A DNA stretch of 64,000 nt, taken from assembly GCA_028819255.1 (NCBI GenBank), contig JAPPMB010000041.1, forward strand, positions 33,575-97,574. The letters are read 5' to 3'. Position numbers and translations under genes: made by a program. Below are positions 8,112-42,790 of this stretch, in pieces. The DNA comes from Bryobacterales bacterium. Lineage in GTDB: Bacteria; Acidobacteriota; Terriglobia; Bryobacterales; UBA6623. Within the stretch, counting starts at the first letter, position 1. Each line of letters starts with the position of its first letter. The notes under the pieces are model-generated. The model searched no databases, was not told the origin of the DNA, and worked only from the letters and a program-made list of their open reading frames with translations.

Positions 8112-8723
8112 CTACTTCAGGCCGTCCGTCCCGATGCCTTCCAGCAGGCGATGCACATGCTTGGCCAGCATGTCGCACTCGATGTTGACCTCGCTTCCGG
8201 CGCGCACTGAGGACAATGCGGTCACTTCATAGGTGTGAGGGATGACGGCAATCCCGATCGTCGGGCCGTTCAGGGATGCGATGGTGAGGCTGATGCCGTC
8301 AACGGCGATGCTGCCCTTGTAGACCAGAAACTTGAGAAGCTCCCGCGGAGCGCGAACCGACAGCCACCAGTTCCCGTCGCCCAGCGGCTCGAGCGCCTCG
8401 ACCGTGCCCTTGCCGTCGACATGCCCCAGGACGAAGTGGCCGCCCAGGCGGTCCGTCGGCAGAAGCGGGCGCTCGAGATTGACGGCCGCCCCGGGCCTCA
8501 GCCCCCCGAGGTTGGTCCTGTCGAGCGTCTCGGGAGAGAGATCGGCGGCAAATGACCCGCGGACGACTCGAACGGCGGTCAGGCAGCAGCCGTTCACAGC
8601 CACGCTGGCGCCGACCTCCAGGTCACGCAGCACCTTGCCCGCCCCCACAACCAGGCCGGCTCCGGCCCCGTGCGGCGAGAGATCAAGCACCTCACCGGCC
8701 TCCTCCACGATCCCCGTGAACAT
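8112..8723 (-). CDS. ribE: riboflavin synthase
   Basis: MFTGIVEE start, duplicated lumazine-binding halves (GDSVAVNG-like SVAVNGCCLT; GSIAVDGISLT). The ORF is open to 8732, but MFTGIV is the canonical N-terminus. Confidence 0.9.
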   Translation of the reverse strand: MFTGIVEEAGEVLDLSPHGAGAGLVVGAGKVLRDLEVGASVAVNGCCLTAVRVVRGSFAADLSPETLDRTNLGGLRPGAAVNLERPLLPTDRLGGHFVLGHVDGKGTVEALEPLGDGNWWLSVRAPRELLKFLVYKGSIAVDGISLTIASLNGPTIGIAVIPHTYEVTALSSVRAGSEVNIECDMLAKHVHRLLEGIGTDGLK

Positions 8724-8751
8724 GCGGATCATCCCCGGGGGCAGGCCGCCC

Positions 8752-9873
8752 CTAGCGCGCCTCCTTGACGATGTCCGCCTCGACCGCGAACTCGTTCTCG
8801 GCCACTGTGAACGTCCGCAGGCTGCTCAGCTGCAGCGCCCCGGCGCGCGATCTGCGGCCGATGCCACCGACCATGGGCAGCGAGTCGAATCCGCCAAGGA
8901 TCTTGGGCGCGAAGTACAGGAGAACCTTGTCGACGACGCCCGCCTCGAGCACGGCCCAGTTCAGCTTCGCCCCTGCCTCGATCATCAGCGACACGATCTG
9001 CCTGCTTCCCAGCCACTCCACGAGCTGCTGCAGGTCGACCCTGCCCGTCGGCGAGTCGAACACGCGCACGGGGATGTTGAGCCGTGCGAACAGGTCACGG
9101 CGCTTCGGGGACGCGGCCGAGGTCGTTGCCACGACCAGGTCGTCATCGAAAGTCTCGACGATGCGCGAGTCCCCGGGAAGCCGCAGGAGCGAGTCGGCGA
9201 CAATCCGCATCAGAGGACGGCGCCGCGGCAGGCCGGAACGGTCGGTCAGCCTGCAGTCGTCCGCCTGCACCGTCCCGATCCCCGTCATGATCGCGTCGTG
9301 CCGGTGCCGCACGCCCTGGACGTGCTGCCGCGCGGTCGCGCTGGTGATCCAGCCGGTGTTGTCGTCGGGGGCGGCGATCTTTCCGTCGAGCGTCAAGGCC
9401 GTCTTGAGCGTGACCAGCGGGCGGCCGGTGCGGGCGAAGTGGAAGAACGGCTCGTTGAGTCTGGCCGCCTCGAAGGCAAGCTCGCCTCCCGCCTCCTCGA
9501 CCTCCACTCCGGCGGCGCGCAGGCGCTCGATGCCGGACCCGTCGATGTCGGGATTCCGGTCGCGGGTCGCGGTCACGACCCGCGAGATTCCCGCGTTGAG
9601 AACGGAGTCCACGCAGGGTGGCGTCCGGCCCTGGATGCTGCAGGGTTCGAGGGAGACATAGATCGTGCCGCCTCGCGCCAGACTGCCGGCCTCTTCCAAG
9701 GCCAGCACCTCGGCGTGCTTCCGGCCCGCATAGGTGTAGCAGCCCGATCCCGCCTTCCTGCCCGAAGCGTCGACCAGCACAGCCCCCACCTGCGGGTTGG
9801 GACTCGCCAGGGCGTCCCCTTGGCGGGCAAGCTCGAGCGCTTCCCGCATCCACCTCCGGTCCGTCTCCGTCAT
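8752..9873 (-). CDS. ribD: bifunctional riboflavin biosynthesis deaminase/reductase
   Basis: CMP/dCMP deaminase zinc motif HAEVLAL...EPCSIQGRTPPC. C-terminal reductase half LTLDGKIA. ATGA overlap with the ftsY stop. Confidence 0.9.
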   Translation of the reverse strand: MTETDRRWMREALELARQGDALASPNPQVGAVLVDASGRKAGSGCYTYAGRKHAEVLALEEAGSLARGGTIYVSLEPCSIQGRTPPCVDSVLNAGISRVVTATRDRNPDIDGSGIERLRAAGVEVEEAGGELAFEAARLNEPFFHFARTGRPLVTLKTALTLDGKIAAPDDNTGWITSATARQHVQGVRHRHDAIMTGIGTVQADDCRLTDRSGLPRRRPLMRIVADSLLRLPGDSRIVETFDDDLVVATTSAASPKRRDLFARLNIPVRVFDSPTGRVDLQQLVEWLGSRQIVSLMIEAGAKLNWAVLEAGVVDKVLLYFAPKILGGFDSLPMVGGIGRRSRAGALQLSSLRTFTVAENEFAVEADIVKEAR

Positions 9874-10835
9874 GCAGGAGCCTGCGTAGCAAACAAGGAT
9901 CGCACGAACGTCTCCGAATCGAATGCGACCAGGTCGTCCGGCTTCTCCCCGACGCCGACCCAGCGAATCGGCAGTCCGAGCTCCCGTGCTATTGCGACCA
10001 CGATCCCGCCCTTGGCAGTGCCGTCGAGCTTGGCCAGCACCAGTCCGGTGACCCCCGCGGTGGACGTGAACTGCCGCGCCTGCTCGAGTCCGTTCTGTCC
10101 GGTCACGGCGTCCATCACGAGCAGCACCTGATGGGGAGCCCCCGGCACCAGGCGGCCGGCGGTCCTGCGGATCTTCTCCAGTTCCGCCATCAGCCCCGCC
10201 TTGTTGTGCAGGCGGCCCGCGGTGTCCACGATCACGGTGTCATGGCCTCTGGCTTTGGCCGCCTGGAGCGCGTCGTAGAGCACGGCGCTGGGGTCGGCTC
10301 CGGGCCTCTGGCGGACGACGGGGCAGCCTGCGCGATCGCCCCAGATGGCCAGCTGCTCCGCCGCCGCGGCCCGAAACGTGTCGGCGGCACAAAGGAGCAC
10401 GGCCCGGCCCTGAGCCTTCAAGTGGCGGGCCAGCTTGCCGATCGTGGTGGTCTTTCCGACCCCGTTCACACCGACGACGAGGATCACCTCCAGGGCCTTG
10501 CGCGGGGTGCCGTCCCCCGCCGCGCCGGAGGCCCGGTCCAGAATCTCAAGCATGCGGCGCGAGATCAGGTCCCTGACCGCGCTCGCGTCGCAGAGCTGGT
10601 CTCGGGCGAGTTTCCTGCGGACGCCATCAAGAATCTCGTCCGTGGTGCGGACTCCGATGTCCGCGCCGATCAATGTCATTTCCAGGTCCTCGAGAACCTC
10701 GGGGTCGATCTTGCGCGGCCCTTCGAGAATCTCGCCGATCTGGCCGGACAGGGCCTTTCTCGTCTTCGAGACGGCTTTCCGGAAGCGTCCGAACAGCCCC
10801 GGCTCCTTGAGCGGAGCGTCGAACAGGGTCTGCAT
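9870..10835 (-). CDS. ftsY: signal recognition particle receptor
   Basis: GVNGVGKTTTIGKLA, DTAGRLHN, LAKLDGTAKGG (SRP GTPase G1-G4). I place the start at MQTLFDAPL (ATG 10835). The upstream 609 codons of ORF 9870..12662 overlap the well-supported 991-aa gene in another frame. Confidence 0.9.
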   Translation of the reverse strand: MQTLFDAPLKEPGLFGRFRKAVSKTRKALSGQIGEILEGPRKIDPEVLEDLEMTLIGADIGVRTTDEILDGVRRKLARDQLCDASAVRDLISRRMLEILDRASGAAGDGTPRKALEVILVVGVNGVGKTTTIGKLARHLKAQGRAVLLCAADTFRAAAAEQLAIWGDRAGCPVVRQRPGADPSAVLYDALQAAKARGHDTVIVDTAGRLHNKAGLMAELEKIRRTAGRLVPGAPHQVLLVMDAVTGQNGLEQARQFTSTAGVTGLVLAKLDGTAKGGIVVAIARELGLPIRWVGVGEKPDDLVAFDSETFVRSLFATQAPA

Positions 10836-10913
10836 CGTCGGGTGCGGGCTGTCCCGCCCTTCGATGATATCAATGCGCTGGGCCGCAGAATCCCGACCTG
10901 CGCGCATCGGCCG

Positions 10914-10962
10914 CCCCGCCCGGATCCGGCCGGGCCCGGAGATTCGATGGAGGCGGGCGGGG
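10914..10962 (-). terminator. GC-rich stem-loop directly after the 991-aa gene stop (possible terminator or processing site)
   Basis: CCCCGCCCG (10914-10922) is the exact reverse complement of CGGGCGGGG (10954-10962). The 31-nt loop contains a further ccgg-rich palindrome. There is no U-tract. Confidence 0.3.
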
Positions 10963-10963
10963 A

Positions 10964-13939
10964 TCAGGGCCCCTGGGAGATCCAGATGGGGCTCGACCAG
11001 GCCAGTTCGCCGTCCCGCTGCTCGACCCTCACGTAGTACCAGTGGTCCCCGGGACCGGCCTCGACATCGAGATATTCGAACTCGGCCTCCTGCGTGCCGG
11101 GCTCGACCTTGTAGACGTAGGCTGCGTCGCGGATCAAGTGAATCGCGGCGATTTCGTCGGTGCCCCGCACCCTGACAACGGCCCTCTGCGGACCTGATGA
11201 GGCCGTCTCCTCGCCCATGAATGCCGCGCCCAGACGGAAGTCCAGGACGATGTTGTCCGTCGCGCCGTAGGTCCGCCTCTTGCGGATCGCGTTGTGGATC
11301 GCCTCGCGGCTGGTGTCCGGCGTGTAGACCATCGCGTACGAAATGTGGGTCGAGTAGTGATCCGAACTCGCGATGACACCGATCCTGTAGCCCTTCTTCC
11401 AGGCGTTCCAGAGCATTCCCGGCTCCTGGAAGCCGCCGGCCGCCTGGCCCTCCTCCCCGTCGCGGATCCCCCTGGGTGCGTTCTTGTGCTCGTAGTTCTG
11501 GCGGGCTCCCTGGTAGATCTCCGCAACCGTGTCCACTGCGGGATCGTTGTCGCGCCAGTCGGTGCCCATCGAGTCCGTCCCGGAAGTGTGGGGGATTGCC
11601 AGGCCGTTCGTCTGCCGGGCGACGTCGTAGAGGAGTTTCGTCTCGTTGCGCACGCCGCTGCCGAATCCCATGGAGCTGAACGTCAGCAGCTCGCCGTCCG
11701 GGCTGTCCGGCAGGATGAACCGCGGATGGGCCGGAATGAAGAACGGCACGATCGGGTAGTTGCGGTGCGTGTAGATGAGGTTGCGATGGCCGAAAGGATT
11801 GCCGGGATTCCGCTCGTAGCCGTACAGGGTCGAGAAGCGCTCCGGAAAGTGGTACATGTCCGCCATCTTCTGGGTCATCGCATTCCAGAAGTCGGTGCCT
11901 CCGGCCTGGTGGTCCGTCGAGGCGCCGAAGTCCATTTCGGCGGCATCGATCATGTAGCGGTAGAACTCCGGAAGCGATCCGTCGCTCATGCCGCCCACGT
12001 CCTGGGAGAGCTCGGTGTGCCGGTGAAGGTCGCCCCGCACGATGCGCAGCGTCTCGCCCGCGTGCCCGACCCGGTAGTTGCGGATGAAGCGAACGTCGTC
12101 GGGCTCGGTGGGGTGCGGGTCCGGCCGGACCTCTGCGGGCTCCGGCCGGTACGGTCTCAGCCGCGGCGCGGCTCCCGGACCGGGGAGTTCGAGCGAACCG
12201 GCGACCACCCGGTTCAGGCGGGGCCGGCTGGCAAAGGCCCAGCGACGGCTCTCGTGCGGCCAGAATGCCCAGAGGCGCCCCTCCGCGATGGCCGTCCCCA
12301 TGCGGGTGCTCTTGCGCGCCCAGCTGAGGGGCAGCGTGATGGGCTCGCTCCAGCGCTGCCCGTCCAGACGCGTCAGGAAGGACTCCCAGTACGAGGTCGG
12401 CCGGTAGGACTGCCGGCTGTACCGCCGCTTGAAGGACATCCAGAGGTTGCCGTCCGGGTCGAAGAAGAGCCCGGGCCGGCTCTCGCCCGTCGTCCCGGCC
12501 GCCTGAGGGTCGCCGAAGGCCACCTCGGCAGGCGTCTTCCACTGGCCGCCGTCGTAGCAGACGACCTCGACCCGCCGCGCCGACCCCAGGGGCGTCCCGG
12601 GCTGGGGCTCTCCGAGGCCCCGGCCGAGATCCTTGCCCCAGTGCACGCCGGAGGTCTCCCACGCAACCCAGGGCCGGCCCTGCGCGTCCACCGCCACGCT
12701 GGAATGGGCTTCAAACCGGGCGGTCGACGCGACAGGCATCTCGGGGCCGAGACCGCCCCCCTGCGAGTACTCGCGGACGAGGACGTCGTAGCTGCCCCCC
12801 GAACCCTTCCTGTAGCGGTCCCACGCGATCCACGCGGATCCGTTCGGAGCGGCGGCGACGGAGGGGGACCAGTCGTTCGCAGCGGATGCGGTCACGGAAA
12901 CGGTTTCCGACCAGCGACCGTCGCGCAGGTGCTTGAGGCGAATCTGCGAGTGGCGCCCCGCCATCGACTGCCAGACCACGTAGATCGTGCCGTCATCCGC
13001 CCGGGCGACCTGCGGCTCGATGTCCGGGAGGGGATTGTCCGTGAGCCGATGCTGCCGGCCCCATTCGTCGTCCTCCCAGGCCATGGCGAAGATGTCCCAG
13101 TTGCCGGGCCCGTCGGCGGCTGGCCGCTGGGAATAGACCAGCCACGGCTTGTCCGCGGCATCGACTGCGATCTGCGGACGCCACAGGTCCTCGGCCGCCC
13201 GGCCGACGGGAATTAGGCGGGACCAGCGCTCCTCGTGGAAGCGACGGAAGTTGAGCTCCTCGCGCCGGTCGTGATAGCTGTACCAGGTCGCGAACAGATT
13301 CCCCTTCGAGTCTGCGGCGATGGCCGGCGAGTCGTGCTGGCGCAGCTCCGTTCCGGAAAGATCCGTCGCTGGCGGGGTGCGCTGGATCGCGACGCGGCCG
13401 CCGACGAACCGCGACCAGGGGCCAAACTCGAGAGCCACGGGCTGAAACGAGAAATCGCCGTGCACCGTGGTCACCGAAACCGTCGTCGAGGCGTTTCCGC
13501 TGCCACGCACCCAAAGCCCCTTCGGCATGGGCTCCACGCGGTGCCGCGGATCCGGCCGCGCCACGACGCCCGACCGGAGCAGGATCCTCACGTCCTGCGT
13601 CGTCAGCCGCCAGCCCCCCTGGGGCAGAATCCGGTCGGGCGGCTCCTGCCTGTGCGGATCGATGCCGAGGATCTCGCCTCCCCGGATCGACAGGCTGCCG
13701 TCCCACGACTCGCCCGCCCCGTCCCCAACCCCAAACAGGATCAGCACCTGCCACATGTCGGCTTCCCGGGTGCCTCCCGGGTGCCACGTGAAGTTGTCGA
13801 GAAAGTCGGGGGTGGCCGCCGCGGCGGCCCCCGACTGCACAGGCTCCGCCCGCTGGGGCGCCGCGGGCGCCAGGAGCGCGACCGCCAGGAAGGGGACCAG
13901 AAAGACGGTCGGAGCGGGACGGTTGATGCGATGGCACAC
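10964..13939 (-). CDS. secreted beta-propeller + PHP-like metal hydrolase (991 aa), paralogous to 2767..5382
   Basis: GTG start preceded by GGAGG. Signal peptide FLVPFLAVALLAPAAP. Repeated xxGxxWxxW blades (KGNLFATWYS, DKPWLVYS, GTIYVVWQS, GSAWIAWD, GRPWVAWE). PHP-like DLHRHTELS, ASTDHQ, IPHTSGTD, ASSDHYSTH. C-terminal HWYYVRVEQRDGELAWSSPIWI. Confidence 0.7.
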   Translation of the reverse strand: MCHRINRPAPTVFLVPFLAVALLAPAAPQRAEPVQSGAAAAATPDFLDNFTWHPGGTREADMWQVLILFGVGDGAGESWDGSLSIRGGEILGIDPHRQEPPDRILPQGGWRLTTQDVRILLRSGVVARPDPRHRVEPMPKGLWVRGSGNASTTVSVTTVHGDFSFQPVALEFGPWSRFVGGRVAIQRTPPATDLSGTELRQHDSPAIAADSKGNLFATWYSYHDRREELNFRRFHEERWSRLIPVGRAAEDLWRPQIAVDAADKPWLVYSQRPAADGPGNWDIFAMAWEDDEWGRQHRLTDNPLPDIEPQVARADDGTIYVVWQSMAGRHSQIRLKHLRDGRWSETVSVTASAANDWSPSVAAAPNGSAWIAWDRYRKGSGGSYDVLVREYSQGGGLGPEMPVASTARFEAHSSVAVDAQGRPWVAWETSGVHWGKDLGRGLGEPQPGTPLGSARRVEVVCYDGGQWKTPAEVAFGDPQAAGTTGESRPGLFFDPDGNLWMSFKRRYSRQSYRPTSYWESFLTRLDGQRWSEPITLPLSWARKSTRMGTAIAEGRLWAFWPHESRRWAFASRPRLNRVVAGSLELPGPGAAPRLRPYRPEPAEVRPDPHPTEPDDVRFIRNYRVGHAGETLRIVRGDLHRHTELSQDVGGMSDGSLPEFYRYMIDAAEMDFGASTDHQAGGTDFWNAMTQKMADMYHFPERFSTLYGYERNPGNPFGHRNLIYTHRNYPIVPFFIPAHPRFILPDSPDGELLTFSSMGFGSGVRNETKLLYDVARQTNGLAIPHTSGTDSMGTDWRDNDPAVDTVAEIYQGARQNYEHKNAPRGIRDGEEGQAAGGFQEPGMLWNAWKKGYRIGVIASSDHYSTHISYAMVYTPDTSREAIHNAIRKRRTYGATDNIVLDFRLGAAFMGEETASSGPQRAVVRVRGTDEIAAIHLIRDAAYVYKVEPGTQEAEFEYLDVEAGPGDHWYYVRVEQRDGELAWSSPIWISQGP

Positions 13940-13996
13940 GGCTGATCACCTCCAGGACGAAGCGGCGGAGCCCGCTCCCGGCCCGCATGCCGGCGG

Positions 13997-14078
13997 GCCG
14001 CCTTCGGAACGCGCCGATTGTACCTTGACGGATCTGCGCCGCCGGTAGAGGCCTGCCCGGAGCCGCCTTCGGAACGCG
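13997..14078. repeat. two exact 17-bp direct repeats GCCGCCTTCGGAACGCG (13997-14013 and 14062-14078)
   Basis: Read directly. They are 65 bp apart, upstream of the 991-aa gene and at the left edge of the low-GC islet. Confidence 0.85.
14017..14026. repeat. left copy of 10-bp direct repeat ATTGTACCTT bracketing the low-GC islet
   Basis: Exact match to 16088-16097. It lies about 60 bp before the composition drop. Confidence 0.6.
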
Positions 14079-16087
14079 GAGATTTTCTCCGAAGACCGTA
14101 CTCACTTAGGCAGTCGTAGGTCTTTATGTTAACAGTATTGCGTATAGAACTGCCCACTTGCAGAACGCTTGAAGTGCATGGCAGTTTCGAACAAACTACC
14201 TTGAGTCGATACCAAGGGCACGCCACAACATCGGATGTACCAAGACCTTAACACCGTGCGAAATTTGGGACTTTGAGACAGTTCTAGAATCCAATGTCGA
14301 CCACTGTGCTGTTTCAAACGATTCCAATTTCAGTCCTATTAAGCCGGCACGATAATACCCTTGAAGTATCGTGTTTCTGACATATTCAATGTCCACCAAT
14401 GCATCGACAAGACGAGTTGCTGCTTTCGAAAATGGATCACCATTCTCTGTAGATGGATGATCAATACAGAATCCTATACAGACTTCCTCAATAATTTCGC
14501 GCTTGATATCATCCGCTAGAAATGTCGCTTTTCGTGACTTAATAAGTCGAGTAAAGTATAATAAATGAGGGTAATCGGAAACCCATTCATCGGCAAGTGA
14601 CCTTAGACGATTTTTGGAGTATAATCCTTCTGCATCCCGAATTATCTGCACACTGATTCGTGGCCGATTGACGGCTTTTGCAATGCAACAGTTAAAAAAC
14701 ATAATGACATCCCGAGGACGCATCATCGTGCGCCGCAATAAGTATCTTAGCGATGGCTGGCCATCAATTTGAGTCGGTAAGAGATCTCTGTGTGTTACAG
14801 ATTGCTTGGTATACCTTCGCCTTATTAGGTGATTGATTCTTAGGTTGAGCATTTGCTCTAAGGTGTTTTCCGTCCAACTAATCGGCAAATATAATGACTC
14901 ATATTTCTCTTCTTGAAAGCCCGTATCGCGTGTGACTTGAAACACTTTCTCTATTAGATCGATCCGTAACGCGATTACAATTTTTGCATTCCTAATTCGT
15001 CGAAAATCTTTGACAGTTTCGATTAGTGCTCGAATCAGCCGATATCGAAGCCTATCTTCAATCCAGTTTTCGTCTAGATTATCTAAGACAATAAAGTAGT
15101 GTTTTTGGCGATCCGACAAGACCTTGTCAGTTAGATCAATAATATCGGATAACTGTCGGATTTGGACTGCATTCACCACGCGCTGTGCTCTCTTAATGAT
15201 TTGTCCTTTTGCGGTAGCTATGTGCTTATCAGTCGCGCCGACATCAAACTGTATGCTAGGAAACAGAGCTCTGACGGAGGTTTTTAAGTCTTCTTCTAGC
15301 TTCTCCGTAACTTCCTTGATCCGATATTCTGTCTCCTGCCAGAATTTACTCCCCCAATTCTCAAGGTATTGCAGGGCTTTCTTTTCTTTATCGTCTAGAA
15401 AAAGACTTCGGATCTGTTGGATGAATGTGTTCTTAGGAGATCCGTCTAATATATGAAAGTGTAGCTTGATAAGTTCGACGGTGAAAACGTGACGCCAGAG
15501 GAGCTTAAAAAAGATGTCTAGTTTTACACCAAGGTTATCAAAAAAGTTCAATATTGTAGAATTAGAAATATAACTCAAGGCAAGACTTTCTGGTCGAATA
15601 TCGATGACTCGTTCCTCGGTAGCCGAAAGTCTTTTCAATAATGCGGTTTTCCCAGATCCCGTCCTTCCGACAACAATACTGCGAGGGTCAGAACAATCAG
15701 ACAGTACTCTCAGGTGTCCAGTGTCGACGAAACATTGGGCTAAAAAATCGAAATCTTCTTCGGCAGCAGCCACGCCTATCGAGTCAAGTTGCCTGAAACG
15801 GAATTTATCCTTCTTCCCTACTTTCTGAATTGGTCGTTTCGGCATGTTACTGTAGTGGTTTATCAGTGATCACGCTTCGAGTGAGGCGAATAACGAGAGG
15901 CACTCCTCCAAGTCCAATCTTCCCTAAGAGACATTGGCTCGCCAAAGGGAGAAACATCGCTGGTTTGGAACACAACATCCGTGCTGCCGTGAATCAACGC
16001 CTTCTCTGTTGCGCCTCGAACGTTTAGGTCGCTGGGCGGTGAAGACAAGGCGAAATTCTCTACTCATCTGAACGACCGACCGAGACC
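14027..16087. other. compositionally foreign low-GC islet (cargo-only insertion, no mobility gene)
   Basis: Counted G+C is 42% in lines 14341-14400 and 15001-15060, against 82% (13801-13860) and 77% (16501-16560) in the flanks. The islet holds a single gene and is bracketed by the 10-bp repeat. Confidence 0.7.
14196..15845 (-). CDS. orphan P-loop NTPase (AAA+/STAND-like, possibly Sll1717-type ATPase), 549 aa
   Basis: Walker A IVVGRTGSGKTALL (nt 15645-15668). Walker B HYFIVLDNLDENW (nt 15069-15095). KIVIALR strand, then MRPRDVIMFFN (sensor/arginine motif of Orc1/STAND-like ATPases). Helical C-terminal ~170 aa with no recognisable effector domain. Confidence 0.8.
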   Translation of the reverse strand: MPKRPIQKVGKKDKFRFRQLDSIGVAAAEEDFDFLAQCFVDTGHLRVLSDCSDPRSIVVGRTGSGKTALLKRLSATEERVIDIRPESLALSYISNSTILNFFDNLGVKLDIFFKLLWRHVFTVELIKLHFHILDGSPKNTFIQQIRSLFLDDKEKKALQYLENWGSKFWQETEYRIKEVTEKLEEDLKTSVRALFPSIQFDVGATDKHIATAKGQIIKRAQRVVNAVQIRQLSDIIDLTDKVLSDRQKHYFIVLDNLDENWIEDRLRYRLIRALIETVKDFRRIRNAKIVIALRIDLIEKVFQVTRDTGFQEEKYESLYLPISWTENTLEQMLNLRINHLIRRRYTKQSVTHRDLLPTQIDGQPSLRYLLRRTMMRPRDVIMFFNCCIAKAVNRPRISVQIIRDAEGLYSKNRLRSLADEWVSDYPHLLYFTRLIKSRKATFLADDIKREIIEEVCIGFCIDHPSTENGDPFSKAATRLVDALVDIEYVRNTILQGYYRAGLIGLKLESFETAQWSTLDSRTVSKSQISHGVKVLVHPMLWRALGIDSR

Positions 16088-16097
16088 ATTGTACCTT
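16088..16097. repeat. right copy of 10-bp direct repeat ATTGTACCTT
   Basis: Exact match to 14017-14026. It lies at the point where composition returns to GC-rich. Confidence 0.6.
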
Positions 16098-16309
16098 AGG
16101 CGATGTCACGATGGCTAGCGTATGGTGTGGGGGTCCTTGCTAGCTTAGTGGTACGTCTCAGACCACTGCGCACCAACGCGGGCCTCTCCGGATAGGGCCG
16201 GATCCTTGGACAATACGGACTTCGCGGATGCAACGCCACTGTCTACGTAACGCCTGCTTGCTTGGCTCCCAATCGCAGTCGCCGATCTGATTGCCGGCCA
16301 GACGCCCGG

Positions 16310-17431
16310 CTACAGCCCGGTCTCTAGCCAGCCTCGCTTGGCGGCCGAGGCCTCGATCGCCGCCAGCACGCGCTGTACACTCAGACCGTCCTCGAACGTG
16401 GGCCGTGCCGGCTCGCCGGACTCCAGCCCGGCGAGAAAGTCGGCCAGCGAGCTGGTGAACGTGTGCTCGTACCCGATCGGATGGCCGGGCTTCCAGTAGT
16501 AGGGATCCGCGGGCGGTCCCGGCGAGGGCGCGAGAACTCTCCGCGTTCCGCGCAGGTCCGGGTCGCCGCCGGCGTCGGCGTACTCGAGCCGGTTCATGTG
16601 CTCGAAATGAAACTCGACCATGCCCTTCTCGCCGTGAACCACAAAGCTGTTGTCGTTCTGATAGCCCGTCGCAAAGCGGGTGGCCTCGAACGTCCCGAGC
16701 ACACCGCTCCGGAACCGCGCCTGCACCAGCACGACGTCGTCGATGTCGATCGCGTACGTCTCCCCCGGGCGGTCGGGATCGGGCTTTTCCGGAAGGATGG
16801 TCTCGAACGTGGCGGAAAGTTCGCGAATCGGGCCAAGCAGCATCATGGCGGTGTCGAGCAGGTGTGAGTTCAGGTCGCCGTTGACGCCCGACCCGGCCGT
16901 GCTCCTGGACATCTTCCAGCTCCTTGGGCGGCTCGGGTCGGGCCCCCACTGCTGCAGATACTGGGCGCGGTACTGATAGATCCGGCCCAGCCGGCCCTCC
17001 TCGATCAGTCGTCTCGCCAGCTCCACGGCCGGCACGCGCCGATAGTTGAACCAGACGAACGTCGGAACCCGCGAGGCTGCCGAGACCATCGCGCGCGCCT
17101 CCTCAAGGCTGTTGGCGAGGGGCTTCTCGCAGAGCACCATCTTTCCCGCGCGGGCCGCAGCGACGGCCATTTCGGCGTGCAGGTAGTTCGGCGTACAGAT
17201 GTCGACAGCGTCGATGTCCGGGCGGTCGATGACGCGGCGCCAGTCGGTCTCAACCTCCTCCCATCCCCACGCGTCGGCTAGCGCCTCGAGACCGGCGCGG
17301 CTGCGTCCGCAAACCACTCGCCGCCTCACCTTGGGAACGTGCGGGAAGAAATGCCCCACCTGGGCGTAGGCGTTGCTGTGCGCCTTGCCCACGAAGCCGT
17401 AGCCGATCATGGCGACATTGAGCGCGCCCAT
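16310..17431 (-). CDS. Gfo/Idh/MocA family oxidoreductase
   Basis: N-terminal Rossmann VAMIGYGFVGKAHSNAY, EKPLA motif (LCEKPLANS). 373 aa. Confidence 0.85.
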   Translation of the reverse strand: MGALNVAMIGYGFVGKAHSNAYAQVGHFFPHVPKVRRRVVCGRSRAGLEALADAWGWEEVETDWRRVIDRPDIDAVDICTPNYLHAEMAVAAARAGKMVLCEKPLANSLEEARAMVSAASRVPTFVWFNYRRVPAVELARRLIEEGRLGRIYQYRAQYLQQWGPDPSRPRSWKMSRSTAGSGVNGDLNSHLLDTAMMLLGPIRELSATFETILPEKPDPDRPGETYAIDIDDVVLVQARFRSGVLGTFEATRFATGYQNDNSFVVHGEKGMVEFHFEHMNRLEYADAGGDPDLRGTRRVLAPSPGPPADPYYWKPGHPIGYEHTFTSSLADFLAGLESGEPARPTFEDGLSVQRVLAAIEASAAKRGWLETGL

Positions 17432-17470
17432 CGCCGAAGCGTACCACCGTCGGAGCGTCCGGTGCGGAAC

Positions 17471-18940
17471 TCAGGCCGGACCTGCGTCGGCCAGCCTCCC
17501 GGCGGCGTCCTCCCAGCCCTGGGCCGCGCGGGGGTCCGGATCATAATGCGCAAGGTCGAACGACTGCCGCACAATGGCCCGAGCCTCGGCAAGGTCGCCG
17601 ATCCTTCCCGAAGCCATGCCCTGCATCAGGCAGTTCCCGGCAGCGGTTGCCTCCACCGGACCCGCGATCACCGGAACGCCGCACGCGTCGGCGGCGAACT
17701 GGCACAGGAGCCCGTTCCGCGAGCCGCCGCCCACGATGTGCAGCACTTCGGGCCTCCGCCCCGTGATCTCTCCGGCATCGCCCAGAACGGAGCGGTAGCG
17801 CAGTGCGAGGCTCTCGAAGATCGCCCTCGCGAACTCCCCCGTCGACCGGGGCTCGGGCTGGCCGGTTCGGCGGCACGCCTCCGCGATCCGCCCCGGCATG
17901 TCCCCCGGAGGGATGAACTCGGGGGCGTCAACGTCCACCAGCGACCGGAACCGCTCGCACCTGGCTGCGCCCTCAAGCAGCTCGGCATAGTCCGTGCCCA
18001 TCCCGTGCCGGGACCATTCCCGCCGACACTCCTCCAGCAGCCACAGGCCGCAGATGTTCTTGAGCAGTCGCGTGGTCCGGCAGACCCCTCCCTCGTTCGT
18101 GAAGTTCTTCGCCAGGACCTCTGGCGTCACGTGCGGGCGGTCCGACTCCACGCCCAGCAGCGACCAGGTGCCGGAACTCAGGTAGGCCCAGTCCCCATGC
18201 CGGGCGGGGACCGCGGCGACCGCCGAGGCCGTGTCGTGCGTTCCGGGCGCCGTGACGCGCATCGCCGGCAGCCCGCACGCCTCGGCCACCGGGCGGCGGA
18301 GGGCTCCCAGGTCCGTGCCGGGGTCCACCACCTCGCCGAAGATTCCGGTCGGAATCCCGAGAGCCTTCAGCACGGAGTGCGCCCAGTCGCGCCGGCGCGG
18401 ATCGTAGCATTGCGAAGTGGTCGCATCGGTGAACTCGCAGACGCGCTCCCCGGTAAACCAGTAGTGGAAGAGGTCGGGCATCATCAGCAGCGAACTGGCG
18501 CGCTCCAGCGCCGGCCCGCCCTTCATCGCGAAGAGCTGGAAGAGGGAATTGATCTCCATGAACTGGAGGCCGGTGCACTCGAAGATCCGCTCGCGGGAGA
18601 CGACGCCTAAGGCCTCGGCCATCTTGCCCGCGGTGCCTCCGTCCCTGTAGTGGTGCGGATTGCGGATCAGCTCGCCGTCCCGGTCGAGCAGCGCGAAATC
18701 GACGCCCCAAGTGTCGACTCCGAGCGACACGGGCTTGAATCCGGACGCGGCGCCCATGCCGCGGCACATCTCCGCGTAAAGGCGGAGCGGGTCCCAGTGG
18801 AGCCGGCCGAGGACCTCGACTCCCGTGTTCGGAAATCGATGCAGCTCATCCACCCCGATGGTCGAACCGTCGAAGCGGCCCAGCATGACCCGTCCGCTCC
18901 CCGCCCCCAAGTCGATCGCCAGATAGTGTTCCTTCGTCAC
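17471..18940 (-). CDS. rhaB: rhamnulokinase (FGGY carbohydrate kinase)
   Basis: GTG start. AIDLGAGSGRVMLG, LHRFPN, GVDTWGVDFALLD, THDTASAV, YLSSGTWSLLG, NEGG...LLKNICGLWLL and HIVGGGSRN are collinear with E. coli RhaB as I recall it. Confidence 0.8.
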   Translation of the reverse strand: MTKEHYLAIDLGAGSGRVMLGRFDGSTIGVDELHRFPNTGVEVLGRLHWDPLRLYAEMCRGMGAASGFKPVSLGVDTWGVDFALLDRDGELIRNPHHYRDGGTAGKMAEALGVVSRERIFECTGLQFMEINSLFQLFAMKGGPALERASSLLMMPDLFHYWFTGERVCEFTDATTSQCYDPRRRDWAHSVLKALGIPTGIFGEVVDPGTDLGALRRPVAEACGLPAMRVTAPGTHDTASAVAAVPARHGDWAYLSSGTWSLLGVESDRPHVTPEVLAKNFTNEGGVCRTTRLLKNICGLWLLEECRREWSRHGMGTDYAELLEGAARCERFRSLVDVDAPEFIPPGDMPGRIAEACRRTGQPEPRSTGEFARAIFESLALRYRSVLGDAGEITGRRPEVLHIVGGGSRNGLLCQFAADACGVPVIAGPVEATAAGNCLMQGMASGRIGDLAEARAIVRQSFDLAHYDPDPRAAQGWEDAAGRLADAGPA

Positions 18941-19076
18941 ATGACCGCTCGCAATAGCCGCTGATTGTCGCGCAATCTCCCGCAGCTGGGCAAGCCGGGA
19001 CGACGGGAACCCGCGCTGCGGTTCGCGCGTTCAGGGCCTGGCGGACCGCGAATGCCGACCGCACTACGCTGGATGC

Positions 19077-19964
19077 ATGGCGCCGGCTCCCTGGAAGGTC
19101 TCTCTGCATGGCGGCCACTCGGGCGAGTTCTGCGAACATGCCCAGGGCACGCTGCGCGAAATCCTCGACGAGGCCGTCCGGCAGGGATTCGCCGCCTGCG
19201 GCGTGACCGAGCACGCCCCGCGCGCCGAACCGCGATTCCTGTATGCGTCCGAGCGCCAAAAGGGCTACACCGTCGCGCGGCTCGAGCGCGAGTTCGATCG
19301 CTATGCCGGGGAATCCCGCCGCCTCCAGACCGAGTTCGAGGGGCGGCTTGACGTTCTGCGCGGCTTCGAGACGGAGGTTGTTCCTTCTGGCCGCTATGCC
19401 AGCCTGATGCGGAGGATCCGCGACCGGTACGAATTCGATTACGTGGTCGGCTCAGTCCACCACGTCGAGGAGATCCCCATCGACGAGTCTCCCGATCTGC
19501 ACCGCGCCGCAATGGACGCCTGCGGCGGCCTGAGGCCGTTTCTCGTGAAGTACTACGGGCTGGTCCGGGAGATGATCGAGGAACTGCGGCCGGAAGTCGT
19601 CGGACATCTCGACCTGCCCAAGCTGCATTTGCCGCCCGGCGCGGATCTCCCGGACGGACAGGTCCGCGCAGCGGCGGAGAGGGCGATCGAGGCGGCCCGG
19701 TCGAACGGGTGCATTCTCGACCTGAACACGGCGGGCTGGCGCAAGGGGCTTGCCGCACCCTATCCCTCGCCCCGGCTTGTCCAACTGGCGCGGGAAGCCG
19801 GCGTTCCCTTCTGTTTCGGCGACGACAGCCACAGCCGCTCCCACGTCGGCTTCGGCATCGCCAGGGCCCGGGAGTATCTGCTCGCCAACGGTGTCGATTC
19901 GGTCACGGTCCTCGAGCGCCAGGACGGCGAAACAGCCCGGCGCGAAGTGCCGCTGCAGACCTAG
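19077..19964 (+). CDS. HisJ-family PHP histidinol-phosphatase-like protein
   Basis: SLHGGHSGEFCEHA, CGVTEHAPR, GSVHH, GHLD, FGDDSHS: the PHP-domain His/Asp pattern of the HisJ/HisK family. Confidence 0.65.
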   Translation: MAPAPWKVSLHGGHSGEFCEHAQGTLREILDEAVRQGFAACGVTEHAPRAEPRFLYASERQKGYTVARLEREFDRYAGESRRLQTEFEGRLDVLRGFETEVVPSGRYASLMRRIRDRYEFDYVVGSVHHVEEIPIDESPDLHRAAMDACGGLRPFLVKYYGLVREMIEELRPEVVGHLDLPKLHLPPGADLPDGQVRAAAERAIEAARSNGCILDLNTAGWRKGLAAPYPSPRLVQLAREAGVPFCFGDDSHSRSHVGFGIARAREYLLANGVDSVTVLERQDGETARREVPLQT

Positions 19965-20087
19965 GGGCCGAGGTCCATAGTACAATTGGGATCGGGCCTC
20001 GCAGCTTCGGGGTTCACCTCCGGCGGCGCCGTTGGCTCGGCAGCCGCCGCCAGCGCCCCGCACGAGGGGACTCGCCACACTCCAGCC

Positions 20088-22031
20088 ATGCTGAAGCTAT
20101 TCCGGAACCAGGGCAAGACCCTGCGGTGGATCATGGGCAGCCTGCTGTTCCTGATCGCCGCCTCGATGATCATCACGCTCATTCCGAACGTGTTCGGCCC
20201 CGCAGGGCCCGCCAGCGGGGACGTGCTCGCGGAGGTGGACGGACTGGCCGTCACGACGCGGGATGTGGAAATCGAGTTGCGCCAGCAGCGCGCCAGCGGC
20301 ATGCCGGACGAGGCGATCTCGATGATGGCGGGCACCCTGATCGAGAACCTCATCGCGGAAAAAGTCCTTCTCTCCGAGGCCGCCGCCCTGGGGCTCGTGC
20401 CCACCGACGAGGACATCGCAAGGTGGCTTCGCGACTTCCTTCCCGATGTCCTGTTCCCGGACGGCAAGTTCATCGGCGCCCGGGCCTATGAGGGGTTCGT
20501 GCGCCAGCAGTTCCGACGGACGGTCGCCGAATTCGAGCGCGAGGTGCTCTACAACCTCGCGATCGACCTGCGGCTCAGGCGGATGGTGACCGACAGTGTC
20601 GGCGTGACCGAGGAGGAGGTCAGGCGCCGGTTCCACCACCAGAGCGACAGCGTCAGCATCGAGTGGGCGGCGGTCGAGTCCGACGACCTGCGCGGCGATG
20701 TCAGGCCGACTCCCGAACAGCTGCGCGAGTACTTCGACTCGAACCAGCTGCGCTACCGCCACCCCGAACGGCGGCCGCTGAAGCTGATGACGGTCGGCCC
20801 CGAGGCGGGGGCCGCCGAGTACGAGATCACGGAGCCGGAGATCGAACTGTACTACTCGCAGAACGAGTACCGATTCGAGCAGCCGGAGCGCGTCAAGGCC
20901 CGGCACATCCTGTTCATGACGATGGACAAGACGGAGGAAGAGACCGAGCAGGCCAGAAGGAGCGCGGAGAGCGTCCTCGAGCAGCTGGAGGCCGGCGGAA
21001 ACTTCTCAGAGCTGGCCCGGGAGCACTCCGAGGACCCCGGCAACGCGGACAGCGGCGGCGACCTCGGCTGGTTCAGCCGCGGCATGATGGACCCCGCCTT
21101 CGAGGACGCCGCGTTCGCGCTGCAGGTCGGCGGCACCACCCCGGAGCCGGTCAAGTCCGAATTCGGCTACCACCTGATTCGCGTCGACGAACGGGAAAGC
21201 GGCAGCGTGAAGCCGCTCAGCGAGGTGCGCGACGTGATCCGCGCCGACCTGCAGGCCGAGAGGTCCCAGAACGACCGCTACGCCCTCATGGAGAACGCCA
21301 TGGCGGCGGCGGAACAGGCGGGAACCGCGCTCGAGACGATCGCCTTGCGGCTCGACCTTCCCTTCCAGGAGTTTCCCGCGTTCAGCCGCTCGGAGCTTCC
21401 CGACTCCCTGCCGAAGGCTGCCGCACTCGTGGAGGCCGTGTTCGAGGAGCGGGCCGGAGAGGTCTTCACCGTCGCGCACGAGAGCACACTCTACATCGGC
21501 ATCGTGTCCGAGGCGGTCCCGGCGCGAAACGCCGAGTACGAGGAAGTCGCGGGAAGGGTGCGGGAGGACTACATTGACACCGAGGCCGCGAACCTGGCGC
21601 GCCAGGGCGCCGAGGAGATCGCGAACACGGTCCGCGAAGGATCCGCCAACCTCGGGGCTGCGGCCCGGCTCGCCGGACTGACTCCCGCGACGACCGAATT
21701 CGTTGCGCGCGGCGGGGACATCGAGGACCTCGGCCCCGTCAGCGCCCTTGGCGACGAAGTCTTTGTGAGCACGGACGGGCAGCTGCAGGGTCCCGTCGCG
21801 GTCGGAAACCGCTGGGTCGTGTTCCGCACCGTCGAGCTGCGCGAGGCGGACGAGTCCGCCCTCGCAACGGAGAGCGGCCCCATTCGGGAGGCGCTCCTGG
21901 CAGAGAAGCAGAGCCAGATCTTCGAGTACTACCGGGCCCAGAAGGTCCGCGAGTACGCGGAGACCGGGCTGCTGGTCCGTTACGCGGACCGAATTCAGTC
22001 CTACGTGCGGTCAATGCAGAGCGCCACGTAG
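20088..22031 (+). CDS. membrane-anchored parvulin-type peptidyl-prolyl isomerase (PpiD/SurA-like)
   Basis: I chose the start at MLKLFRNQGKTLRWIMGSLLFLIAASMII (N-terminal TM anchor). Parvulin core VKARHILF...GGDLGWFSRGMMDPAFEDAAF...SEFGYHLIRV. Confidence 0.7.
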   Translation: MLKLFRNQGKTLRWIMGSLLFLIAASMIITLIPNVFGPAGPASGDVLAEVDGLAVTTRDVEIELRQQRASGMPDEAISMMAGTLIENLIAEKVLLSEAAALGLVPTDEDIARWLRDFLPDVLFPDGKFIGARAYEGFVRQQFRRTVAEFEREVLYNLAIDLRLRRMVTDSVGVTEEEVRRRFHHQSDSVSIEWAAVESDDLRGDVRPTPEQLREYFDSNQLRYRHPERRPLKLMTVGPEAGAAEYEITEPEIELYYSQNEYRFEQPERVKARHILFMTMDKTEEETEQARRSAESVLEQLEAGGNFSELAREHSEDPGNADSGGDLGWFSRGMMDPAFEDAAFALQVGGTTPEPVKSEFGYHLIRVDERESGSVKPLSEVRDVIRADLQAERSQNDRYALMENAMAAAEQAGTALETIALRLDLPFQEFPAFSRSELPDSLPKAAALVEAVFEERAGEVFTVAHESTLYIGIVSEAVPARNAEYEEVAGRVREDYIDTEAANLARQGAEEIANTVREGSANLGAAARLAGLTPATTEFVARGGDIEDLGPVSALGDEVFVSTDGQLQGPVAVGNRWVVFRTVELREADESALATESGPIREALLAEKQSQIFEYYRAQKVREYAETGLLVRYADRIQSYVRSMQSAT

Positions 22032-40938: not shown

Positions 40939-41054
40939 GCTTCAGCTTAACACTCGTGCGGGCCGTGTCATTCGCTCTGTGAGAGCGCTGTCCGCGATCT
41001 TGCGCCGCCATCCTCGTTCCTGGCCGGGCTGGAAGGCCAGCGGAAAGAAGGAAG

Positions 41055-41083
41055 ATGACGAAGACACTGCGTTGGTGTATAAT
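41055..41083 (+). promoter_or_regulatory. sigma70-like promoter candidate for the NYN gene
   Basis: Perfect TATAAT at 41078-41083. ATGACG (4/6 to TTGACA) at 41055-41060 with a 17-nt spacer. The predicted start gives a ~34-nt leader to ATG 41124. Confidence 0.35.
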
Positions 41084-41123
41084 CTCCTCAGTCGGCTGTT
41101 CAGACAACCCTTACCATCTCAGT

Positions 41124-42623
41124 ATGCAGATGCCAACCCACAATGAGCCATTGCGATCAGCTGTATTCGTGGACTTCGATAATATATTTATTGGATTACG
41201 GGATGACTATGGAGAGAAGATTGCGAACTATTTTGCGACCAATCCAAATCGGTGGTTGGACTGGATATCTCGAATTCCGAATGATAGGGTCAGCTCTGAT
41301 ATCACTCGACGAGTGATTCTGAGAAAATGCTATTTGAATCCTGCAGCGTTTTCGCAGTTTCGCATTGATTTTGTTCGCGCCGCATTTGAGGTCGTTGACT
41401 GCCCGTCACTGACAGCGCAGGGGAAAAGTTCTGCAGACATTCACATGGTCCTTGATATCATCGATGCTCTAGAACAGAAGCCGACTTTCGAGGAGTTCAT
41501 TTTGATGTCTGCAGATTCGGACTTTTCACCGGTCCTGCTCCGCCTCAGGCGATTTGATCGACGATTGATGGTAATTACGCCAAGTGATGCCTCAAAGGCA
41601 TATACTCAGATTGCAGATACTGTAATTGAATCAGATGACTTTGTAACGCAAGCGCTAGAGGCTCATGGCCTAGAAGGGAATGTAGATGCGCATGATCAGC
41701 ACCGACTTAGACAGCTTGCCGAGAAACTCGAAGACTCGATTACTAGGAATGATGGGTCTATTCTAAGACACCAAGTCCATGCCGTGTTTAAGAATGAGGC
41801 TGATTTTGCGGAGAGCAACTGGTATGGATTCTACAGTTCAATTGCCCTTGTGAATGCCTTGGTGAGCCAGAACCGACGACTAGTGGTTGTTAGGAAAAGC
41901 GATGAACCGTGGTCAGTTGAATTGCGCAGTCTCACTGTGAGAAGCTCACGTAGTCCCGATATAGTGGAGGAAATTGATCAATTCATAAAGTCCCAATTAT
42001 CACTTGCGTCCCAACCTATATCCGGTGCATCCTTGGCCCATACTCTGCAGCAACGATTTCCCAGACAGACGTGGTTCGGATTTCCAAATTTCGGCTCGTT
42101 CATCGAGGATTCTGTGAGAAGGATTGGGCTAAAATACGACAAGGCGGGAAGTCACGACGTTATCTGGGATCCCGAGCGCCATCAGCCACCACCAATACAA
42201 ACGGACGATTCGAGTAGAAATCATCTGATCGGTAGAGAACATACCGACCTACATGAGTTTGTTCAGCGTCTCCATAGGAATTACAATATTCCCCCACTCC
42301 GCTCAAGAGTATATTGCCGGATTTTTGAAGTTATTCTAGAATCTGTATCATCAAAGGGTTTCTTCCATGTGAACACGACGTCAAAGCATGTCCGTGATCG
42401 ATTAGTTACAGAAGGGTATTCCGTCAGCAGAAAAGCGATCCACTTTATCCTCCGAGGTCTACAGAACGAAAATCTCAACTTTGAAGAGTATCAAAGCCTT
42501 AAGGCAATTGATCTAGCAACGCGTTTCAGTTCCAATATATCCAAACTAGTCAACACTTCCCACGTTAAACTGAGCCGCAGGGAACAGATGATGATTGAGG
42601 ATTGGATTCTTCCACGAGCATAG
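41124..42623 (+). CDS. NYN (LabA-like, PIN-fold) ribonuclease domain protein with ~320-aa helical C-terminal extension (OST-HTH/LOTUS-like repeats?)
   Basis: AVFVDFDN, GKSSADIHMVLDIIDAL and FILMSADSDFSPVLLRLRR are the conserved Asp positions of NYN. The ORF is open from 41055, but that ATG sits in the putative -35, so I prefer ATG 41124. No clear RBS. Confidence 0.75.
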   Translation: MQMPTHNEPLRSAVFVDFDNIFIGLRDDYGEKIANYFATNPNRWLDWISRIPNDRVSSDITRRVILRKCYLNPAAFSQFRIDFVRAAFEVVDCPSLTAQGKSSADIHMVLDIIDALEQKPTFEEFILMSADSDFSPVLLRLRRFDRRLMVITPSDASKAYTQIADTVIESDDFVTQALEAHGLEGNVDAHDQHRLRQLAEKLEDSITRNDGSILRHQVHAVFKNEADFAESNWYGFYSSIALVNALVSQNRRLVVVRKSDEPWSVELRSLTVRSSRSPDIVEEIDQFIKSQLSLASQPISGASLAHTLQQRFPRQTWFGFPNFGSFIEDSVRRIGLKYDKAGSHDVIWDPERHQPPPIQTDDSSRNHLIGREHTDLHEFVQRLHRNYNIPPLRSRVYCRIFEVILESVSSKGFFHVNTTSKHVRDRLVTEGYSVSRKAIHFILRGLQNENLNFEEYQSLKAIDLATRFSSNISKLVNTSHVKLSRREQMMIEDWILPRA

Positions 42624-42790
42624 TCGTGAACATTGTGGTCGGCGATCACCTCGGCCAAGGATTCGGTCAGCCTGCGGACTATCCCTGGAATTCGCGCTAC
42701 TATGGCTCCTCGTGCATCGGACCAATGCCTGCTGCCGGATCGGCACCGGGCAGGCAAGACCATTCCATTGTCAGGACATGTGTGCCTCGT

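Follow-up and report, generated by a model that had tools for sequence, protein, structure and literature searches.

Within a window of 64,000 nucleotides from a Bryobacterales bacterium (assembly GCA_028819255.1, contig JAPPMB010000041.1, positions 33,575 to 97,574), an islet of low G+C content (GC) with a single gene lies between two host genes on the minus strand. On one side is the gene of a secreted protein of 991 aa that matches GH43 and CehA/McbA weakly (10964-13939), on the other a gene for a levoglucosan-dehydrogenase-like Gfo/Idh/MocA oxidoreductase (16310-17431). The gene in between, at 14196-15845 on the minus strand, encodes a 549-aa P-loop ATPase of the Sll1717 family. Here, we find that the islet is a foreign insertion and that its gene is a likely anti-phage gene. 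As an explanation of the whole, we consider it fairly probable that ~2.0 kb of AT-rich foreign DNA with one self-contained, probable defence ATPase gene entered by illegitimate recombination and thereby split a host repeat.

A foreign insertion between two conserved genes

The low-GC islet is real and foreign in composition. Its GC is 0.43, against 0.66-0.69 in host DNA; in 200-nt windows the GC drops from 0.69-0.76 to 0.36-0.48 between ~14100 and 15900 and then rises through 0.52-0.64. The tetranucleotide deviation of the islet peaks at z = 26, and the ATPase gene has a codon-adaptation index of 0.24 versus 0.72 +/- 0.04 in host genes (index trained on 21 host genes) and a GC at third codon positions (GC3) of 0.41 versus 0.81-0.93. 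An earlier note on this DNA had claimed an abrupt change of composition on the basis of four 60-nt counts. Recomputation returned identical values (0.417, 0.417, 0.817 and 0.767), and the GC, tetranucleotide and codon-usage analyses bear the claim out. A likelihood fit with two change points (GC of the left, islet and right segments 0.71, 0.43 and 0.68) placed the edges at 14080 and 16099, close to the positions near 14085 and near 16100 given in the note, with 2-lnL (log-likelihood) support intervals of 14067-14084 and 15976-16178. A third change point adds 6.8 lnL and sets off an intermediate stretch of GC 0.56 at 15871-16293. Taking together the change points, the absence from relatives and an in-silico excision described below, the best-supported limits of the inserted DNA are 14085-16087 (2003 bp, GC 0.435, no strand assigned).

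Is this stretch also absent from related genomes? We scanned species-representative genomes with the 991-aa neighbour protein and obtained 32 loci (L001-L032) with a protein identity of 65-87%, almost all of which bear a Bryobacterales label. The islet has housekeeping genes as neighbours (Gfo, FGGY, PHP, RibD), and the gene order PHP - FGGY kinase - Gfo/Idh/MocA - 991-aa protein - RibD is kept in 19 of the 32 loci. The Sll1717-family ATPase is absent from all 19 syntenic Bryobacterales loci, and the gap between the Gfo and 991-aa genes measures 109-250 bp in 15 of them, versus 2370 bp here. Because 19 relatives keep the synteny and lack the ATPase, and the gap is short in 15, the 2-kb stretch is a true insertion between two conserved genes. 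The earlier note had predicted empty sites with a single copy of ATTGTACC, which are indeed present in related genomes, and had named the same gene at the same locus in relatives, with host-like composition, as a finding that would speak against an insertion; none of the 19 carries it. Composition and empty sites also support its view of a cargo-only foreign insertion.

The site between the Gfo and 991-aa genes is variable within the order. Extra open reading frames (ORFs) at host-like GC lie between the two orthologues in L003, L017 and L026, L004 is without the Gfo gene, and L023 has a 6.7-kb gap, partly of GC 0.52-0.60, with an 885-aa ORF. From this gene content we conclude that the site tolerates gene gain. 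It is not a recurrent slot for ATPase cargo, and no recurrent defence cargo was found there among the relatives compared.

The islet contains one ORF only, with no integrase or recombinase in or beside it. Scans confirmed that the islet lacks an integrase, a transposase, a transfer RNA (tRNA) gene and terminal inverted repeats, as had been noted: no transposase and no terminal inverted-repeat pair was found at the islet ends (best terminal match 11/25), and no tRNA or tmRNA gene and no Rfam hit within the 64 kb. As for an integron cassette, no GTTRRRY attC core occurs in 14027-14195 or 15846-16100 and no integrase among the flanking genes at 8112-22031.

An intact, stand-alone ATPase gene

The window gene is intact and a member of NCBIfam family NF047389 ('P-loop ATPase, Sll1717 family'). 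The protein scores 216.2 bits against a curated cutoff of 75 and matches the profile end to end (model positions 2-454 of 454, protein aa 24-544). Both Walker motifs, A (GRTGSGKT, aa 60-67) and B (LDNLDE, aa 254-259), are intact, and the protein keeps every one of the 66 columns that are invariant in an alignment of 45 homologues, including G60, G63, G65, K66, D255 and D258. In length, Walker motifs and single-domain architecture the protein agrees with NF047389, and we see no structural difference. PHROG 13260 (function unknown) matches it over the full length, and a hypothetical protein encoded on a 183-kb contig of a Bryobacterales metagenome-assembled genome is 100% identical to it.

In an AlphaFold2 model (predicted local distance difference test, pLDDT, 83.9; predicted template-modelling score, pTM, 0.80), the AAA+ core carries a long insertion of helices, and the C-terminal half is helical too. 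Foldseek gave weak AAA+ matches only (template-modelling (TM) score at most 0.35), to HslU, BrxC (BREX), RdrA (RADAR), Orc1/Cdc6, MalT and TnsC. Modelled alone, the C-terminal half reached a pLDDT of 93.9, and its best match in the PDB was the lid and winged-helix region of Orc1/Cdc6 (E = 0.42). The predicted fold is AAA+/ORC-Cdc6-like. A sequence search of solved structures gave no match to the ATPase, and its Pfam hits all stayed below gathering (nSTAND3 20.4 vs 27.2, KAP 14.8 vs 20, also AAA_16 and NACHT). With these scores and a model that has neither an effector nor a repeat domain, the protein does not classify as a STAND/Avs-type or KAP NTPase defence protein.

In this family the gene stands alone and has been widely transferred. 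An exhaustive search returned 608 clusters (50% identity) at E <= 1e-30. Length is uniform, almost all members having 530-590 aa and centring around 550, and therefore the family is without fusions. Across 85 homologue loci there are zero conserved flanking genes, the largest neighbour cluster (10 of 85 loci) being a housekeeping reductase common to related genomes; because no flanking gene is conserved, we regard the ATPase family as a stand-alone unit. In 44 of the 52 homologue loci with enough flank for a GC comparison, the GC of the gene is over 5 points lower than that of the flanks (mean 0.445 vs 0.548). The five closest homologues (58-77% identical) have a gene GC of 0.39-0.44 in hosts of GC 0.58-0.72. 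At these five loci the low-GC tract comprises the ORF with up to ~530 nt upstream and ~340 nt downstream, and resembles that of the window; three distinct variants (L033-L035) come from one metagenome sample.

Full-length homologues (36-42% identity) are carried by 169 plasmids, 60 of them conjugative; one plasmid homologue stands beside toxin-antitoxin genes and another among insertion sequence (IS) elements. A Klebsiella phage-plasmid carries a Sll1717 homologue as well, and a search of viral contigs returned no relatives of the window ATPase. Members of the family occur on chromosomes of many phyla as well as on plasmids and phage-plasmids, with no published function found; a literature search for 'Sll1717' retrieved no paper.

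Edges of the insertion and mode of entry

The exact 10-bp direct repeat that had been reported around the islet is confirmed: ATTGTACCTT occurs at 14017-14026 and 16088-16097, and its 8-nt core, GGTACAAT, at these two sites only within the 64 kb (0.2 expected). Its description as close to both boundaries holds for the right copy, which is at the GC edge, and fails for the left copy, which lies 58 nt outside the sharp composition edge and hence outside the foreign DNA, in GC-rich (0.71), host-like sequence. This left copy belongs to an intact 30-nt motif containing GGTACAATCGGCGCGTTCCG (13997-14026, minus strand), ~100 nt upstream of the 991-aa gene. In a comparison across L001-L032, around positions 9760-9920, the 20-nt motif GGTACAATCGGCSCGTTCCG was found as a single copy ~100 nt upstream of the 991-aa gene in 21 Bryobacterales relatives, and it is identical at 20 of 20 positions in L021 and L030. 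The motif looks like a -10 box with an operator; there is no canonical -35 box. Because 13997-14026 is an ancestral motif conserved in relatives, the left repeat is host regulatory sequence. Both copies of the 10-mer share a preceding AA that is not found in relatives.

A further tract, 14062-14084 (minus strand), agrees with 13997-14019 in 21 of 23 positions, and its end falls precisely on the composition edge. We propose that it is one half of a split host repeat whose detached other half is the Gfo-side copy of AAGGTACAAT (16088-16097, minus-strand reading). Indeed, in-silico deletion of 14085-16090 joins 14062-14084 to 16091-16097 and yields GCCGCCTTCGGAACGCGGAGATTGTACCTT, in which 28 of 30 positions equal those of 13997-14026. 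Within the 64 kb, both the 8-mer and the 17-mer are confined to these sites, the latter being no dispersed repeat. In the closest empty site, L021, a related half-motif, CGTTCCGGAGGCTGC, stands upstream of the conserved motif with the same spacing.

On our preferred reading, the 30-nt element would have been present twice in the ancestral host, at a distance of 65 nt, so that the pre-insertion site would read GCCGCCTTCGGAACGCGCCGATTGTACCTT-(35 nt)-GCCGCCTTCGGAACGCGGAGATTGTACCTTAGGCGATG. One Bryobacterales lineage would then have acquired 14085-16087, between the Gfo/Idh/MocA gene and the promoter region of the 991-aa gene, when a foreign fragment of 2003 bp broke into the copy nearer to Gfo, with three nucleotides, ATT, either duplicated or shared as microhomology. 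Entry would have occurred by illegitimate (microhomology) recombination, the fragment bringing no recombinase of its own. The intact motif copy in front of the 991-aa gene is untouched by the insertion. Since the excision rebuilds the motif at 28 of 30 positions and the edges 14085 and 16087 fit the likelihood edges 14080 and 16099, a split repeat is the simplest reading of the edges, and we give it about even chances. The 10-bp repeat itself would on this reading be half of the split host repeat, and it is probably not a target-site duplication (TSD).

Several results weigh against this reconstruction. An exact shared 10-mer between the edge zones arose in 6% of shuffles, and in 12% with zones of +/-150 nt, and the chance expectation of 0.01 given in the earlier note was too optimistic. 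Two copies of the 30-nt motif were found in no relative compared. The 66 nt upstream of the window motif align to L021 marginally better than shuffles (p = 0.044), which is only marginal as support for a host origin of 14027-14090, and the 66 nt upstream of the Gfo-side copy show no alignment to L021 beyond shuffles (p = 0.35). A simple 65-nt tandem duplication or a long TSD was also considered and rejected, the spacer sequences not matching.

The Gfo-side 10-mer could instead be a coincidence or a convergent -10-like element and the 23-nt pair an ancestral operator pair, with the insertion point somewhere between 14085 and the Gfo stop codon; the repeats would then be uninformative on mechanism. 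The shuffle frequencies just given are in line with this, as are the half-motif of L021, which comes without the 10-mer, the intermediate GC that reaches ~16293, and a promoter scan that calls TAGCCA-18-TACAAT at 16117-16088. However, excision would rejoin the 10-mer in register with the 23-mer, the 10-mer stands at the maximum-likelihood GC edge, and both copies share two bases not conserved in relatives. We take coincidence to be possible, though unlikely.

An islet of 14027-16087 that is itself a mobile or decayed integrative element appears improbable to us. Its 10-bp repeat would be a TSD or an attL/attR core produced by a recombinase in trans, and the ancestral site would have been CGCGCCGATTGTACCTTAGGCGATG, with a single motif copy and without 14027-14084. 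Such an element would account for an exact 10-mer with a lineage-specific AA extension in both copies and a core unique to the two sites, for the right-hand copy at the GC edge and for empty sites with a single motif copy. However, it places 14027-14084 (GC 0.71, 21/23 match to the host flank) unexplained inside the element, and the islet offers no integrase, transposase, tRNA gene, terminal inverted repeat or attC core. Moreover, the ends are not conserved between loci: the non-coding islet ends matched nothing in 124 loci except ~94 nt upstream of the gene in L035. The five closest homologues represent independent insertions and show no bracketing repeat beyond chance, the longest such repeats there and at a second islet of the window (41 kb) being 7-8 nt, as chance predicts. 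The earlier view of the repeat as the boundary of a mobile unit is thus probably wrong, its left copy being a host motif outside the edge, and the idea that the islet moves as a unit with the same ends fails, as only the ORF and ~94 nt upstream are conserved between loci.

An assembly chimera, in which a low-GC fragment of another organism was mis-joined into a high-GC contig, is conceivable for a metagenome-assembled genome and extremely improbable here: with host synteny on both sides it would take two chimeric joins, another assembly of this genome (L038, the only other place where the exact Gfo protein was found, and no further empty-site allele) is 100% identical over 9.7 kb, and a low-GC gene in a high-GC host recurs in dozens of loci, including megabase contigs.

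Next to the Gfo-side copy, the intergenic DNA that follows the Gfo stop codon (16098-16309, no strand assigned, GC 0.61) falls in the intermediate segment of the three-change-point fit. It showed no homology in relatives or elsewhere among the loci compared and is probably host DNA.

Is the ATPase a defence gene?

Because of its genomic context and a distant homology to DS-41, the ATPase is likely to be an anti-phage gene. Of the anti-phage cargo that the earlier note had suggested, an NTPase of a plausible defence kind stands; the function itself is putative, drawn from context and distant homology. According to the DefensePredictor study, DS-41 (AAA2) is a single E. coli gene that protects against phage, and low GC relative to the genome is among the strongest non-protein predictors of defence genes (PMC13092281). 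The DS-41 profile NF053860 matches the window ATPase with 51.7 bits (E 6.6e-14, aa 27-449) and its close homologues with 31-68 bits. Like DS-41, the ATPase is a stand-alone P-loop/AAA protein of ~500 aa with no partner gene and a broad distribution. However, 51.7 bits is far below the equivalog cutoff of 370, and the window ATPase is therefore not in the DS-41 family; the two are separate families, related through profile NF053860 and not through direct alignment. A Klebsiella phage hit considered as a DS-41 turned out to be another Sll1717 member.

The contexts of homologues include integrases with GmrSD, a type I restriction-modification system and an OLD-family ATPase; DruA with IS110, a reverse transcriptase and a serine recombinase; an Eco57I-type methylase (MTase) with SLFN/AlbA; and a conjugative element with ArdC, VirB8, SSB, DruA and IS66. 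At two independent loci, L033 (2550-3959) and L121 (3585-4508), DruA-domain genes (PF14236) stand beside IS elements within 5 kb of an ATPase homologue, with which they may form a shared mobile defence island.

How would such a protein compare with known systems? BrxC, RdrA and Orc1/Cdc6 share with the model an AAA+ core with a helical insertion, a lid and a helical C-terminal module. The TM-scores are only 0.2-0.35, and no origin-binding role is implied; in addition, BrxC and RdrA need partners (BrxB/PglZ and RdrB, respectively) that are absent at the window locus. The islet resembles defence islets that arise via illegitimate recombination in being AT-rich, in carrying a single gene and no mobility genes, in its place between core genes and in the empty sites of relatives, and differs from them in that its site has neither a hotspot-specific recombinase nor a flanking tRNA gene. 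The ATPase would act as an ATP-driven switch that recognises an invader nucleic acid or protein and then oligomerises, with no recognisable enzymatic effector. More tentatively, we speculate that Sll1717 ATPases are a widespread and so far unrecognised single-protein immune system without a canonical effector, in which an ORC/Cdc6-like AAA+ protein directly blocks invading DNA and the gene enters genomes by microhomology as a bare cassette, in most cases richer in AT than the host, with no dedicated recombinase; we hold this general form to be a minority prospect.

A number of results count against a defence role. No member of the Sll1717 family has been tested experimentally, the NF053860 cutoff was missed by a wide distance, and PADLOC produced weak partial hits only for the window ATPase. 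The protein has no module that can be recognised as a nuclease, NADase, protease or membrane part, and its C-terminal half found no significant match in the PDB. Plain chromosomal neighbourhoods make up 5 of the 9 annotated homologue contexts.

The ATPase might instead not be immune at all, being a selfish or accessory gene of mobile elements that serves, for example, DNA partition, replication or repair. Plasmid homologues near replication, partition and toxin-antitoxin genes, plasmid copies labelled 'DNA repair protein', the ORC/Cdc6-like fold and the missing effector domain all suit this explanation. However, the gene also occurs alone in chromosomes with no surrounding element, including in this window, it has no conserved partner gene or nearby site, its closest tested relative is a defence protein, and the 'DNA repair' label is an untested annotation. 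We judge a non-immune role to be a real but unlikely option.

The locus provides a clean example from nature, backed by many empty-site controls, of a stand-alone defence-like gene entering a core-genome location without mobility machinery, and the Sll1717 family (~600 clusters at 50% identity) is a testable single-gene defence candidate that would probably work in another way than systems based on nucleases, NADases or membranes. For this genome, the event is ordinary: one recent horizontal acquisition of a stand-alone, defence-like NTPase gene.

Possible expression signals

The foreign region upstream of the ATPase gene (15846-16087, minus strand, GC 0.52) has a proximal part of ~94 nt that can be aligned to the locus of the closest homologue, L035, where the blastn alignment starts 94 nt before the ATG. 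With MAFFT, an apparent extension of the similarity up to the repeat was not significant (p = 0.29). The homologues L033, L035 and L037 share a leader of ~150-190 nt with a TTGACA box and conserved blocks; the box, conserved in these three, is degenerate in the window, where it lies near 16030. There is no Shine-Dalgarno sequence before the ATPase ATG. The long leader may be a regulatory 5' untranslated region.

The promoter-like TAGCCA-18-TACAAT points at the ATPase, ~240 nt upstream of its ATG, and uses the Gfo-side half-repeat. As the detached half-repeat supplies this element, the ATPase may be read from a host-derived promoter, to judge from its sequence. A 43-aa ORF at 15847-15978 (minus strand), with its TAA one base before the ATPase ATG, is probably no gene, as its frame is not conserved in L035. 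At the other end, the foreign 3' region (14085-14195, minus strand) contains hairpins and folds better than shuffles (z = -2.67); a stem at 14199-14217 overlaps the ATPase stop codon and is followed by TTTGTTC, and is terminator-like.

A second low-GC islet in the window

Another low-GC islet with a single gene lies at 41044-42636 (GC 0.42-0.49 versus 0.63-0.70). Its composition edges coincide with the ends of the ORF, and no repeat brackets it. The gene (41055-42623, plus strand, GC3 0.46), which may likewise be acquired and defence-like, codes for 522 aa, with an NYN ribonuclease domain (PF01936, 3e-17) at the N terminus.

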